DNA from: Ekhidna sp.
Lineage (GTDB): Bacteria; Bacteroidota; Bacteroidia; Cytophagales; Cyclobacteriaceae
Assembly (NCBI RefSeq): GCF_039960695.1
Contig: NZ_JBDVKP010000003.1
Span: forward strand, 6,010 to 70,009
Reading direction: 5' to 3'
DNA length: 64,000 nt
The position numbers and the translations under genes were made by a program. How positions within the stretch are numbered: the stretch's first letter is position 1; every line of letters begins with the position of its first letter. Under the pieces are notes generated by a model. The model had not been told where the DNA came from and searched no databases. It saw nothing but the letters and a program-made list of their open reading frames with translations. Positions 46,650 through 50,750 of this stretch are shown in pieces.

Positions 46650-48095
46650 TTATCCGACGCTACCTTCAAGTGTAAGCGCTAATAGTTTTTGTGCTTCTAC
46701 AGCAAATTCCATAGGTAGCTTGTTCATTACTTCTTTCGCAAAGCCGTTGACGATCAGTGCCACAGCTGTTTCTTCATCTATTCCTCTTTGTTGACAGTAG
46801 AAGATTTGATCTTCACCAATCTTAGAAGTTGTTGCTTCATGCTCTATTTGAGCAGATTTGTTTTTTATATCAATGTATGGGAAGGTGTGTGCACCACACT
46901 TATCTCCCATCAGAAGTGAGTCGCATTGTGAGAAATTTCGCGCATTTTCTGCTCGCTTCATCACCTCTACCTGTCCACGATAGCTGTTTTGAGATTTTCC
47001 TGCTGAAATTCCTTTTGACACAATGCGAGATCGCGTGTTTTTTCCCAGATGAACCATTTTGGTTCCTGTATCCGCTTGCTGGTAGTTGTTGGTTACTGCA
47101 ACGGAATAAAATTCACCCACCGAGTGGTCACCTTTCAAAATACAGGAAGGATATTTCCAAGTCACAGCCGAACCGGTTTCTACCTGCGTCCATGAGATTT
47201 TAGAGTGATCTCCTGAGCATATGCCTCGCTTTGTTACAAAATTGAAAATTCCTCCTTTTCCGTTCTTATCGCCAGGGTACCAGTTTTGAACGGTGGAGTA
47301 TTTTACTTCTGCATTTTTTGCTGCGTAAATTTCCACTACCGCGGCATGCAGTTGATTTTCATCTCGTTGAGGAGCAGTACAGCCTTCGAGGTAGCTCACG
47401 TAGCTATCATCGTCAGCTACAATAAGTGTTCTCTCAAACTGTCCCGTGTTAGCGGCATTAATTCTGAAGTAGGTGGAAAGCTCCATTGGGCACCTTACAC
47501 CTTTTGGGATGTAGCAGAACGATCCATCGGAAAAAACGGCGGAGTTTAATGCTGCAAAGTAGTTGTCATTTGCAGGTACAACTGAGCCTAAATATTTTTT
47601 TATTAATTCCGGATGTTCTTGGACAGCCTCACTAAATGAGCAGAAGATTACACCAAGTTCGGATAATTTTTCCTTGAAAGTGGTAGCTACAGAAACGGAA
47701 TCAATCACTGCATCAACAGCTACTCCTGTAAGCCTTTTTTGTTCCTGGAGGGAGATTCCAAGACGTTCGAATGTTTTAAGCAACTCCGGGTCTACCTCAT
47801 CAAGATTCTTCGGCTTCTTATCTTGCTTAGGAGCAGAATAGTACCTGATGGCTTGATAATCAATCTTGGGATAGTTGATGTTTGCCCAATTGGGCTCTTT
47901 CATCTGCTTCCATTGAGCAAATGCCTTAAGACGCCAGTCAAGTAGCCATTGTGGTTCTTCTTTTTTAGCTGAAATGAAACGAACAATATCTTCATTGATT
48001 CCCAAAGGAGCCTCGTCTGCTTCAAAATCAACAGACCAACCATGCTCGTATTCTTTGGAGGTAAATTCTTCTAATATTTGATCGTCAGTGCTCAT
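46650..48095 (-). CDS. sufB: Fe-S cluster assembly scaffold SufB
   Basis: It is 481 aa with highly conserved SufB blocks ([26 protein letters not shown]). Confidence 0.95.
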
Positions 48096-48195: not shown

Positions 48196-48657
48196 CTAAA
48201 ATACGAGGTGTTTATTTACACTCTCTTCGAGTGAAATAAATGTCTCGGTACTCTCAATACCGTCTACTTTTTGAATTTTGTCATGCAATACATCCTTGAG
48301 GTGTGAAGTTCCTTTGCAATAGATTTTGCAGAAGATATTGTAGTTGCCAGTCGTATATCTGATGGTAGCTATTTCAGGAATTTCTTTTAGTTCGGATACT
48401 ACTCTATCATATAGCGAACTTTTCTCCAGGTAGATGCCTAAAAAGCATGTGATGTCATATCCCAGCTTTTCGTAATCAATTTTCAATGTGGTTCCTTTTA
48501 CAATGCCCATGTCTTCTAACTTTTTCATTCTGACGTGAACAGTCCCACCAGACACAAACACTTTTTTGGCAACCTCGGTATATGGCATCTTAGCATCCTC
48601 TGAGAGGATGTTTAAGATTTTAAGATCCACATTATCAATCTCATAATTTTTACTCAT
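48196..48657 (-). CDS. Lrp/AsnC-family transcriptional regulator
   Basis: It has an N-terminal HTH (LDNVDLKILNILSEDAKMPYTEVAKKVFVSGGTVHVRMKKLE) and a RAM/ACT-like C-domain. Confidence 0.88.
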   Translation of the reverse strand: MSKNYEIDNVDLKILNILSEDAKMPYTEVAKKVFVSGGTVHVRMKKLEDMGIVKGTTLKIDYEKLGYDITCFLGIYLEKSSLYDRVVSELKEIPEIATIRYTTGNYNIFCKIYCKGTSHLKDVLHDKIQKVDGIESTETFISLEESVNKHLVF

Positions 48658-48707: not shown

Positions 48708-48765
48708 TTAAATGTATTTATTCATGTAATTTATTGAATTATTTTCAATAAAAACATCATTATGC

Positions 48766-48773
48766 TACATTTG
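48766..48773 (+). promoter_or_regulatory. candidate -7 promoter box for the tRNA-like gene
   Basis: TACATTTG matches TAnnTTTG and ends 16 nt upstream of the acceptor 5' end. Confidence 0.4.
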
Positions 48774-48788
48774 AACCATCAAACATAC

Positions 48789-48935
48789 TGTAGAGTGGTG
48801 AAACTGGCAGACATGCCCTCCTCTCTCGGGGGTGGAGATAAGGGATAAATCCCGGTAAGTTCTCTCTCGGTCATGAACCGGGAGAGAACGTCTGGGACTA
48901 ACTGCTCCGTGGAGGTTCGAATCCTCCCTCTACAG
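48789..48935 (+). tRNA. atypical ~147-nt tRNA-like gene with a class-II body, a nominal CUC anticodon loop and a ~78-nt rod-like variable region
   Basis: The acceptor helix pairs 48789-95 with 48928-34, and U8 is present. The D-arm is GTG-AAACTGGCAGA-CAT (Leu/Ser-like). The anticodon stem CCCTC/GGGGG closes the loop CTCTCTC. The T-arm is GGAGG-TTCGAAT-CCTCC and the discriminator is G. The variable region contains a perfect 13-bp hairpin (48859-48889). No CCA is encoded. Confidence 0.6.
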
Positions 48936-48961
48936 CTTTGGGTTAATGTTGTTTATTTTAA

Positions 48962-48991
48962 GGTCTTGGTAGGGGTGCCAAGGCCTTTTTT
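48962..48991 (+). terminator. rho-independent terminator after the tRNA-like gene
   Basis: An 8-bp stem GGTCTTGG/CCAAGGCC (one G-U pair) closes an 8-nt loop and is followed by a T6 run. Confidence 0.75.
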
Positions 48992-49061
48992 ATTGACTAA
49001 TCCTTTTTCAGTAAAGAGCATACCTTATCTTTATCAGCTTTATAAATCAACAAGCCTTAAT

Positions 49062-50750
49062 ATGAAAAAACAACCATGGCATGCCAGCTACCCCGATGGT
49101 GTAAGCTTTGAGATAAACCCAGATAGCTATAGCTCTCTATCAGAAATGGTTGATGAGCGAATTGAGAAATATGGTGATCTCGTAGCATTTGAGAACATGG
49201 GAAAGGAAATGACTTTTTCAGAACTCGGACATGCCATCAATCAGTTTGCTTCGTATTTGCAGAATCATACGAATCTTAAAAAAGGTGACAGAGTTGCGAT
49301 TCAGATGCCGAATTTGTTGCAATACCCAGTGGTTCTCTATGGAATCCTAAAAGCAGGAATGGTGGTTGTAAATACGAATCCGTTGTATACGCCAAGTGAG
49401 ATGCTTCATCAGTTTAACGATTCTGGTGCTAAGGCTATAATAATTGTTGAAAATTTTGCCGCAAATCTGGAAGAGATTCTGAATGAGACTCAGATAGAGA
49501 CCGTTATACTAACCAAGATTGGAGATTTAATTGGAGGCTTAAAGGGGAGTATCGTAAATTTTGTTGTGAAGAACATCAAGAAGATGGTGCCGGCCTACAG
49601 CCTTCCCAATGCTATTGCACTAAAAAATGCATTAAAGCTTGGCACTCAAAAGGCGCCAGATAAAGTAGAAATAGAAAGCTCTGAATTAGCATTCCTTCAG
49701 TATACAGGCGGAACTACTGGGGTATCGAAGGGAGCAATGCTTACGCATAGAAATGTGATTGCGAACATGGAACAGGTTTGTGAGTGGATGCTGCACGGTG
49801 GTCTGGAAGAAGAAAAAGAGATTTTCATTACAGCCTTGCCTATGTATCACATCTTCGCATTGACATGTAATGCACTTATGACTGTTCGGATCGGAGCGAG
49901 AAATGTACTCGTTACCAATCCTCGGGATATGAAAGCATTTCTAGGAGATCTGGGCAGACATCAATGGTCCATACTTACTGGCGTGAATACTCTTTTTAAT
50001 GGATTACTCAACCAACCAAAATTCAAAGATCTGGATTTTTCAAAAGTTAAATTCTCCTTTGCTGGTGGAATGGCACTCCAAAAGTTTGTGGCTGAAAAAT
50101 GGATGGAAGTGACAGGAACTCCTGTTTCAGAGGGTTATGGTTTGACCGAAACTTCGCCTGTTCTTACTGCCAACCCGCTCAGGAAAGATGCAGAACCAGG
50201 ATATATAGGTATGCCGATACCAAGCACGGAAGTTATTATTTTGGATGATGATGGCAAAGAGGTGAAGACTGGAGAGCGTGGAGAACTGTGCGCTCGCGGG
50301 CCTCAGGTGTTTCAAGGATATTGGAATAGACCCGAAGAAACTAAGAATTGTTTCCACGAAGATTGGTTTAAAACTGGAGATATTGCTGTGATAAACGAAC
50401 AAGGACTCTTTAAAATAGTTGATCGTAAGAAAGAGATGATTTTGGTCTCTGGTTTCAATGTTTATCCGAATGAAATAGAAGATTGCATTGCACTTCATGA
50501 GAAGGTGTTGGAGGTAGGAGTAATTGGAGTGCCGGATAAAAAATCGACTGAAGCAGTTAAGGTCTACATCGTAAAGGCAGACCCGAGCCTGACAGAAGAG
50601 GAGATAACAGAACACTGTAAGGAAAACCTAACAGGATATAAGCGACCAAAGTACATAGCCTTTACAGATGAGCTGCCAAAATCAAACGTTGGTAAGATTC
50701 TTCGAAGAATACTGAAAGAAAACGATTTAAAAACAAATACTTACGACTAA
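49062..50750 (+). CDS. fadD: long-chain-fatty-acid--CoA ligase
   Basis: It has the AMP-binding motif LQYTGGTTGVSKGAMLTH plus GYGLTETSP and WFKTGD. The ATG at 49062 (MKKQPWHASYPDG) is the real start. The track start at 48873 reads through the tRNA-like gene and its terminator. Confidence 0.9.
   Translation: MKKQPWHASYPDGVSFEINPDSYSSLSEMVDERIEKYGDLVAFENMGKEMTFSELGHAINQFASYLQNHTNLKKGDRVAIQMPNLLQYPVVLYGILKAGMVVVNTNPLYTPSEMLHQFNDSGAKAIIIVENFAANLEEILNETQIETVILTKIGDLIGGLKGSIVNFVVKNIKKMVPAYSLPNAIALKNALKLGTQKAPDKVEIESSELAFLQYTGGTTGVSKGAMLTHRNVIANMEQVCEWMLHGGLEEEKEIFITALPMYHIFALTCNALMTVRIGARNVLVTNPRDMKAFLGDLGRHQWSILTGVNTLFNGLLNQPKFKDLDFSKVKFSFAGGMALQKFVAEKWMEVTGTPVSEGYGLTETSPVLTANPLRKDAEPGYIGMPIPSTEVIILDDDGKEVKTGERGELCARGPQVFQGYWNRPEETKNCFHEDWFKTGDIAVINEQGLFKIVDRKKEMILVSGFNVYPNEIEDCIALHEKVLEVGVIGVPDKKSTEAVKVYIVKADPSLTEEEITEHCKENLTGYKRPKYIAFTDELPKSNVGKILRRILKENDLKTNTYD

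Follow-up and report, generated by a model that had tools for sequence, protein, structure and literature searches.

RNAs that take on the shape of a transfer RNA (tRNA) are known from several settings. Staphylococcus uses a non-proteinogenic tRNA-Gly, of normal size and detected as a tRNA, for cell-wall synthesis, and tRNA-like folds act as processing modules in MALAT1-mascRNA, in the tRNA-microRNA units of murine gammaherpesvirus 68 (MHV68) and in the bacterial 3' external transcribed spacer (ETS) unit 3'ETS-leuZ. The allo-tRNAs, defined by 8/4 or 9/3 acceptor/T branches, join a long variable arm and G73 to an anticodon unfit for class II (Mukai et al. 2017, PMC5389517). Here we describe a 147-nt tRNA-shaped RNA encoded at positions 48789-48935 (+) of a 64-kb window, the whole stretch of DNA analysed, from Ekhidna sp. 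We propose, with moderate confidence, that it is a non-decoding tRNA mimic that tRNA enzymes mature and proteins recognise, that is probably aminoacylated and that a neighbouring AsnC-like regulator controls, with a tail resembling a small RNA (sRNA) fused to it in this clade. The RNA belongs to a large family that spans Bacteroidota and their phages and is absent from Rfam, and we found no described RNA of this kind in the full-text literature searched.

The body comprises a 7-bp acceptor stem (TGTAGAG at 48789-95 with CTCTACA at 48928-34), the core nucleotides U8 and G9, a D arm GTG-AAACTGGCAGA-CAT with a 3-bp stem (48798-48814; GUG-AAACUGGCAGA-CAU in RNA form), an anticodon-like arm at 48816-32 whose 5-bp stem CCCTC/GGGGG closes the loop CUCUCUC (48821-27), a T arm GGAGG-TTCGAAT-CCTCC with a 5-bp stem (48911-27), and the discriminator G48935, after which no CCA is encoded, all on the + strand. 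A first-pass annotation of the same DNA had located the acceptor helix, U8, D arm, loop, T arm and G discriminator correctly; the eighth acceptor pair that it proposed, C48788-G48935, is not conserved, 109 of 171 relatives having C at position -1, 37 having U and 25 having A, whilst G73 is constant. The nucleotides that the tRNA L-shape requires are retained (7/5 acceptor/T branch, U8, A14, G18G19, U48 and the T loop UUCGAAU), and the canonical cloverleaf features are all present (7-bp acceptor, 5-bp T stem, U8, G18G19, T loop of the form UUCRANY); the variable region, however, which in canonical tRNAs does not exceed about 21-25 nt, measures 78 nt in this copy and ranges from 38 to 112 nt in the family. 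The minimum free energy of the 149-nt segment is -65.2 kcal/mol (z = -4.0), a value equalled by 0 of 200 shuffles.

Standard tools do not see this RNA. ARAGORN called no tRNA or transfer-messenger RNA (tmRNA) anywhere in the 64-kb window, and Rfam 15 returned zero matches in the whole window at gathering thresholds and nothing relevant in E-value mode for the locus and 16 diverse loci. The tRNA model RF00005 gave zero matches at E<=1 among family members, those of 107 nt included, and ARAGORN was likewise silent on the family. A permissive Rfam search at the locus reached only 15.8 bits for tRNA-Sec (RF01852) against a threshold of 47, with a shifted alignment, and the element is thus not recognised as a member of a known family. 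Once the arm is shortened in silico, ARAGORN calls tRNA(ctc), whilst the native sequence goes uncalled; the body is hence a bona fide cloverleaf, whose detection is blocked by the arm alone. Our own covariance model, R1, scores the window element at 167 bits and true tRNAs at 24-38 bits.

We gathered 172 distinct relatives, 107-182 nt in length, from Ekhidna, Marinoscillum, Hymenobacter-type and Flavobacteriales-type loci, metagenomes and phage contigs. Across 70 distinct bodies 95.6% of cells are paired, as compared to about 50% in slid controls, and double changes occur in 23 of 42 pairs: three in the acceptor, two in the base of the arm, all five of P2, 12 of the 13 at the apex and one in the T stem. 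The structure is under selection: covariation is seen in all seven helices, three of which belong to the giant variable arm. Pairs 4-7 and the T stem also covary over the 172 distinct sequences, and the end of the acceptor is fixed: U1-A72 and G2-C71 are found in 172/172 and U3-A70 in 170/172, as are G73, C74 and U8G9 in every sequence and U48 in 169, with positions 74-76 reading CCA in 53 of the 172.

These data refute the idea, raised in the first-pass annotation, of a decaying tRNA gene with a palindromic insertion. The silence of the tRNA detectors and a few clearly degenerate paralogues (for instance the second copies in loci L017 and L039, and the copy in L080) could be taken to fit a tRNA gene in decay, or one disrupted by a palindromic or mobile insertion, but we give this explanation almost no credence. 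Loci retrieved by synteny show, at orthologous positions, an element far better conserved than its flanks; compensatory changes, in 70-172 relatives, affect every helix including the supposed insertion and its long hairpin; the flanks are syntenic, not mobile; and the family spans orders as well as phages. The apical hairpin has no second copy within the 64-kb window. A repeat, a miniature inverted-repeat transposable element or a pseudogene was rejected likewise, the element being single-copy in the window and the changes among orthologues compensatory, not random.

The variable arm is itself a structured domain. As first described, 78 nt (48833-48910) separate the anticodon stem from the T stem and hold three helices; the domain proper spans 48834-48908 (+), beginning 1 nt after the anticodon stem. 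It opens with P1a (4 bp, 48834-37/48905-08), continues after a 4-nt bulge with P1b (48842-43/48902-03) and an internal loop in which the conserved GAUAAA (48844-49) faces CUAA (48898-901), and proceeds through P2 (5 bp, 48851-55/48892-96) to an apical 13-bp hairpin (48859-71/48877-89) with the loop CAUGA. One common plan holds for all arms from 38 to 112 nt: P1a of 4 bp, a bulge of 3-5 nt, P1b of 2-3 bp, an internal loop formed by a 5' strand RAUAAA and a 3' strand CUAA, P2, and a free-form apex, which in one subfamily carries the mini-hairpin UGGGUUGACCA. P1a and P1b together are 93% paired, with double changes in six of seven pairs over 77 variants. The internal loop (GAU.../...UAA) may resemble the UAA/GAN motif, and it is not known to fit a kink-turn consensus.

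The extent of the family depends on the pattern used to find it. A search of GTDB species genomes for the tail and terminator loop described below, which fixes both by pattern, returned 93 stretches, all in Ekhidna, Marinoscillum, 'Cyclobacteriaceae', Roseivirgaceae or Flammeovirgaceae metagenome-assembled genomes (MAGs). A wider pattern of D loop plus anticodon arm, which thereby fixes the 3' half of the D loop and the anticodon arm, matched at least 120 metagenome stretches and at least 26 viral contigs, and a viral scan with the D arm alone removed the search bias for the anticodon arm. In that unconstrained scan the viral members still have a constant loop, CUGUCUC, on a stem that covaries (CCCUC/GGGGG, CCUCC/GGAGG, CCUUC/GAAGG and CCCAC/GUGGG). 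The same scan recovered genuine phage tRNA-Leu genes with this type of D arm, from which we take the scaffold to be of the tRNA-Leu (class II) type. The first-pass annotation had missed this large family, its ties to AsnC-like regulators and its carriage by phages; the homologue search that it had called for did find compensatory changes, those in the variable-arm helices included.

A purine at position 37 is near-universal among decoding tRNAs, whose anticodons are stable within a lineage. In this family the loop C-U-N-U-C-U-C is fixed across the relatives collected and U occupies position 37 without exception. Position 34 varies: of 172 sequences 127 have G, 24 have A, 21 have C and none has U; the window copy has C. 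We infer that the RNA is non-decoding because position 37 is invariably U and position 34 drifts among G, A and C. Apart from position 37 the loop copies that of tRNA-Asp, a match that was overlooked when it was first labelled merely non-class-II. The strong Asp determinants are G73, G34, U35, C36 and C38, with G1-C72 and G2-C71 added in bacteria (PMC9976931); the family has G73, U35, C36, C38 and G2-C71 in 172/172 and G34 in 74%, and its 1-72 pair is U-A. That pair is the determinant for GatCAB, for which G1-C72 and U20a are antideterminants (PMC9976931); U1-A72 is present in 172/172, and the equivalence of position 20a is ambiguous in a class-II-type D loop. Serine identity, which is anticodon-independent, relies on a long variable arm with G73, and G73 excludes LeuRS and TyrRS (PMC9976931). 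Ser-type features are present here (G73, G2-C71, long arm); SerRS would in addition require a correctly oriented arm.

With this set of identities in hand, a genuine decoding tRNA can be imagined that would be charged by seryl- or aspartyl-tRNA synthetase (SerRS or AspRS) and read GAN codons in recoding or regulated mistranslation. The complete cloverleaf with all its tertiary-pair nucleotides, the location of copies in phage tRNA arrays, the CCA encoded after G73 in about a third of relatives (53/172) and the anticodon-independence of serine identity with long arm and G73 (PMC9976931) all fit such a role. We nonetheless consider it improbable: U37 occurs in every member found, a switch of position 34 among G, A and C would change the codon read (Asp versus Glu) in an otherwise identical RNA, the phages that carry the RNA also have a normal tRNA-Asp(gtc), the arm is 2-5 times longer than that of any decoder, and even the 107-nt members are rejected by ARAGORN and RF00005 alike.

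Comparison with described RNA classes places the element outside the canonical tRNAs, allo-tRNAs, tRNA-Sec and tmRNAs. In its presumed mode of action it stands nearest to special-purpose tRNAs (tRNA-Sec, amide tRNAs and cell-wall tRNAs) and, in this clade, also to tRNA-linked released RNAs. An allo-tRNA, which the first-pass annotation had suggested in the form of a recoding tRNA, would need a 12-bp branch of 8/4 or 9/3, whereas the branch here is 7/5 with covariation support; like allo-tRNAs the RNA combines a long variable arm, G73 and an anticodon unfit for class II (PMC5389517), but its arm is far longer, position 37 is a pyrimidine and position 34 varies with lineage, so that recoding of this kind finds no support. 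Bacterial tRNA-Sec (8/5 branch, 6-bp D stem, UCA anticodon) was rejected on the 7/5 branch, the 3-bp D stem, the CUCUCUC loop and the 15.8 bits to RF01852. With tRNA-Sec and the amide tRNAs of GatCAB it shares a special-purpose scaffold with an enlarged arm, G73, a fixed acceptor end and the GatCAB-licensing U1-A72; it differs in a tRNA-Asp-like loop (GUC, here CUC) with U37 and a 38-112-nt arm with its own internal loop, and, unlike the tRNAs of tRNA-dependent conversion (tRNA-Asn and tRNA-Gln with GatCAB), it has no genome-linked conversion enzyme. A tmRNA would be expected to show G3-U70, pseudoknots and a tag frame; here the pair is U3-A70, and ARAGORN's tmRNA search was negative in the window and positive in the viral locus L114. 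Like the non-proteinogenic tRNAs the RNA is tRNA-shaped, presumably chargeable and endowed with features expected to bar ribosomal decoding, and unlike them it has a giant structured arm and U37. The processing modules of the mascRNA, MHV68 and 3'ETS type resemble it within the window's clade, where the tRNA-like fold abuts a conserved segment that tRNA 3' processing could release; they differ in that the wider family lacks the tail and its tRNA-like part holds sequence-invariant recognition sites. The Y RNA YrlA and the tRNA-like domain of tmRNA are also bacterial non-coding mimics of the tRNA elbow, sometimes phage-borne beside tRNAs, but the ends of YrlA lie in its Ro-binding stem, not in an acceptor stem, and neither an Rfam nor an ARAGORN match was obtained here. 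Of the three explanations first offered, a neofunctionalised tRNA-derived RNA comes closest.

Phage copies sit among real tRNAs. The tRNA arrays of phage contigs include the RNA next to genuine tRNA-Asp and tRNA-Asn, one order being Ser(gct) - RNA - Gly - Ile, and on a 183-kb viral contig (L114:5970-10340 = L247:7002-11372) it is close to a tmRNA and nine tRNAs, among them Asp(gtc) and Asn(gtt). The Rfam tRNA model gives the neighbouring phage tRNAs 55-71 bits and leaves the tRNA-like RNA unmatched. A search of isolated, annotated phages yielded a single unannotated match, in a 636-kb uncultured phage. The tmRNA of the 183-kb contig encodes the tag VDSKVAVA*, and one odd tRNA there received a 2-nt 'anticodon' call.

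The RNA gene has a conserved partner on the chromosome. Divergent from it lies a gene for a 153-aa AsnC-like regulator of the Lrp/AsnC family (48196-48657, -), which heads sufBCDS, with sufB downstream at 46650-48095. By its sequence this regulator assigns the window to Ekhidna (Cytophagales). The best NCBIfam model for the window regulator is the AsnC equivalog (166 bits versus 53 for Lrp; below the cutoff of 227), and three distant lineages give 153-172 bits versus 47-55, again below 227. The order AsnC/Lrp-sufBCD on one strand with the RNA on the other recurs in all loci retrieved via the regulator protein, and nearly every species with a tail/loop match has one RNA copy divergent from the regulator. 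Regulators beside wider-family RNAs are 42-82% identical to that of the window and are annotated at source as AsnC (Flavobacteriales) or Lrp/AsnC (Hymenobacter). Among the metagenome matches listed with enough upstream DNA, 49 of 106 have the regulator start codon 122-199 nt from the RNA 5' end; a divergent regulator was found beside 0 of 23 viral copies. This conserved large family, usually beside the gene of an amino-acid-sensing regulator, points to a working tRNA mimic rather than a broken tRNA. In one retrieved locus (L004) a gene of the 23S-rRNA-IVP family stands between sufB and sufC.

The divergent region between the regulator start codon and the RNA spans 131 nt. The box TACATTTG at 48766-48773 (+), 15 nt upstream of the mature-like 5' end, is presumably a -7 promoter box, judged by the Bacteroidota consensus, and TA(C/A)ATTTG occupies the same place in the Ekhidna-clade loci compared. 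Two AT-rich palindromes, TTGAATTATTTTCAA (48734-48748) and TTGAAAATTTCAA (48674-86), are conserved in most Ekhidna loci; from the usual shape of Lrp or feast/famine regulatory protein sites we assume them to be candidate AsnC/Lrp operators shared by the divergent promoters. Downstream, a terminator scan called a hairpin and T-run at 48960-91. With its own promoter box and terminator, and with ARAGORN and Rfam silent, the element is as first read: an independent, expressed-looking unit that is not a standard tRNA.

A co-oriented fadD begins some 75 nt beyond the terminator in Ekhidna and many relatives, an arrangement that would suit a cis-acting leader or attenuator of fadD, for example a sensor that mimics tRNA with the terminator as expression platform. 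Such a role is very improbable: the gene that follows in other lineages is convergent or unrelated, arrays contain extra copies with no coding gene behind them, and the fold offers no alternative antiterminator pairing. No co-oriented downstream gene is conserved across the loci compared; because the next gene is usually convergent with the RNA, we do not regard the RNA as a leader. A mechanically called open reading frame (ORF) at 48873-50750 (+) is fadD stretched upstream over the RNA and its terminator through an in-frame ATG, the true start being the MKKQPW methionine at 49064, and a 116-aa gene without Pfam hit whose call overlaps the RNA in locus L006 (2040-2390) is probably a spurious prediction.

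In the Ekhidna/Marinoscillum clade the transcription unit extends beyond the body, a part that was missed at first. A single-stranded U/G-rich 3' tail, CUUUGGGUUAAUGUUGUUUAUUUUAA (48936-48961, +), is invariant across the Ekhidna, Marinoscillum and 'Cyclobacteriaceae' relatives examined, and it leads into an intrinsic terminator (48962-48991, +; stem 48962-69/48978-85, U-run 48986-91) with the invariant 8-nt loop UAGGGGUG at 48970-77. The most invariant stretches of all are the 25 nt after the discriminator, UUUGGGUUAAUGUUGUUUAUUU, and this terminator loop, and in loci retrieved by synteny the tail stays invariant while its flanks diverge; the tail/loop search brought together 116 copies. The terminator stem is 97.9% paired, with double changes in seven of eight pairs (35 variants) around a constant loop, and in the centroid fold the tail remains unpaired between body and terminator. 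In sister lineages whose regulator is 86-93% identical, the body has shrunk to an acceptor/T minihelix or been swapped for an unrelated hairpin, and the tail is kept despite this reduction. A coding tail or tmRNA-like tag was rejected: AUG-UUG-UUU-AUU is always present, but neither the stop position nor the frame is conserved. The anticodon arm CCUCCUNUCU may resemble the 3' end of Bacteroidota 16S rRNA, and the tail segment UUGGGUUAA may resemble 16S helix 35.

These observations raise the possibility that the effector in this clade is the tail itself and that the tRNA-like body is a processing or stability module cut by RNase P and RNase Z, the freed U/G-rich sRNA pairing with mRNAs, of which codons 6-13 of the AsnC-like gene (48619-48641, -) would be a candidate. 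The invariance of tail and loop amid diverging flanks, their retention in sister lineages with covarying minihelix stems or another hairpin, and the typical sRNA layout of a single-stranded segment, hairpin and U-run speak for it, as does the complementarity: 20-22 of 23 positions between the tail and the regulator mRNA (+16 to +39) can form pairs in 77/77 loci. Among the Marinoscillum or 'Cyclobacteriaceae' loci tested, five give a duplex of -21 to -23 kcal/mol that 0-1 of 300 shuffles equal; in four of the five it is stronger than any other duplex at the locus. In Ekhidna loci, by contrast, the energies are only -11 to -13 kcal/mol, equalled by 88-144 of 300 shuffles, and the strongest duplex that the window offers over the regulator start region lies at a different register (+36), with -10.8 kcal/mol, and is matched by 134 of 300 shuffled tails. 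Searches of the 64-kb window by k-mer complement and ungapped scans found no outstanding tail target, with 10 equally good sites, and no pairing constraint is visible at the four-fold synonymous sites of the target. The tail is also missing from most of the wider family: the Ekhidna-type tail accompanies 8 of the 126 matches listed from the wider search and was absent from the viral contigs searched, most members having an A-rich spacer and then a terminator, some followed by a gene or tRNAs. The 3' flanks of other clades show no complementarity to the regulator mRNA, and pairing with it was rejected as a general rule, being strong in some lineages, weak in Ekhidna and absent in other clades. 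A mere processing handle would need no invariant loop, invariant acceptor end or conserved arm motif. Antisense control by the tail stands as an unlikely reading, specific to this clade, that would either compete with the tRNA mimic or supplement it.

We return to the tRNA mimic as the reading that we favour. Its tRNA-compatible architecture would let tRNA maturation enzymes handle the RNA, with RNase P and 3' processing maturing the transcript; the fixed acceptor end and the C-U-N-U-C-U-C loop would be read by one or more tRNA-binding proteins, most likely an aminoacyl-tRNA synthetase, and the RNA would mimic tRNA or carry an amino acid without taking part in decoding. Its transcription would be controlled by the divergent AsnC-like, amino-acid-sensing regulator, and in the Ekhidna/Marinoscillum clade 3' processing would free the tail and terminator hairpin as an sRNA-like molecule of about 55 nt. 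Several points weigh against this proposal. The window copy, with C34, has only four of the five strong Asp determinants, and bacterial tRNA-Asp has G1-C72 (PMC9976931), whereas the family has U1-A72. An arm of 38-112 nt could hinder synthetase or EF-Tu binding. Part of the apparent invariance was imposed by the search patterns, about half of the metagenomic copies listed lack an AsnC neighbour, and, as the sister lineages reduce or replace the body and keep the tail, the body may be dispensable and the tail the effector in that clade.

A more specific version, which we hold to be distinctly doubtful, sees in the RNA a carrier of aminoacyl groups that takes no part in decoding and is dedicated to the tRNA-dependent synthesis, or the sensing, of amide amino acids. 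Charging by AspRS would proceed via G73 and the G/U35/C36/C38 loop, and GatCAB would amidate the product via U1-A72 to give Asn on an RNA kept off the ribosome by U37 and the giant arm. In E. coli asnA is divergent from asnC, and the RNA gene sits in the equivalent position here, where the AsnC-like regulator would switch it. Charging with Asp followed by amidation gains appeal from the fact that in some Bacteroidetes AsnRS, GlnRS and GatCAB are encoded and an Asn synthetase is not (PMC4206432). Were this version true, it would explain why some Bacteroidota keep GatCAB despite AsnRS and GlnRS, and why the RNA is found among the tRNAs of jumbo phages.

Whilst tRNA mimics as such are known, this one would be a very widespread bacterial example, occurring in Flavobacteriales, Cytophagales and their phages, jumbo phages among them, and missed by standard tRNA finders and Rfam; annotation pipelines leave the gene blank or put spurious ORFs over it. 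It combines a new structured domain grafted on the variable loop, an acceptor end fixed in the manner of identity elements and a conserved place beside the gene of an AsnC-like amino-acid sensor. If charged, it would show a major phylum putting aminoacyl-RNA to a new use outside the ribosome and may make the puzzle of the 'redundant' GatCAB in organisms with AsnRS and GlnRS testable. If uncharged, it would be a new regulatory tRNA decoy under feast/famine control, and in the Ekhidna clade additionally a natural tRNA-sRNA fusion, of a kind documented mainly in eukaryotes and herpesviruses.

Some genomes hold extra tandem copies in gene-free arrays, around which we found no functional theme, the neighbours being a TonB-like protein, an IS3 transposase and a rhamnosidase. 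In one 'Cyclobacteriaceae' MAG an IS3-type transposase pair (HTH_Tnp_1 + rve) is inserted between RNA copies (L021:2705-4005). The degenerate member at L080:230-324 (-), which ARAGORN calls a 95-nt 'tRNA-Phe(aaa)' and R1 scores at 54.9 bits, lies directly upstream of the invariant tail. Between tandem copies at L032:120-800, 1040-1480 and 1790-1980 (also L102:7300-7400) stand further sRNA-like units whose 5' parts differ and whose 3' module is common, consisting of UUAUUUGAAUCUG, a GC-rich hairpin (..CGGUUCGGCG..CCGAUGC..) and UUUUUCUUUUUAUA; they resemble a second, paralogous family of sRNAs built on the same terminator module. Another clade (L116, L121, L134, L148, L157, L170 and L207) carries GCAGGUUAUUUUGGGUUUAUUGUUAAUUGACUAAAG, a tail akin to but different from the invariant one, ahead of a hairpin, which suggests that U/G-rich tails may have arisen or diversified more than once; the AsnC gene was not found in these retrieved loci. 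Finally, GC-rich viral contigs (L255, L262, L267 and L269) contain a different tRNA-like element of about 95 nt, GGCAGGGUGCUGAAAGCGGCAGACAUAACAUCUGUGCGGCCAGGUUCAGCCCAAUGUGGUAUCGCCCAGCCCUGCC, a variant of which occurs in L280, L317, L319 and L328; it has the same D-arm motif and an acceptor-like closing helix, GGCAGGG/CCCUGCC.

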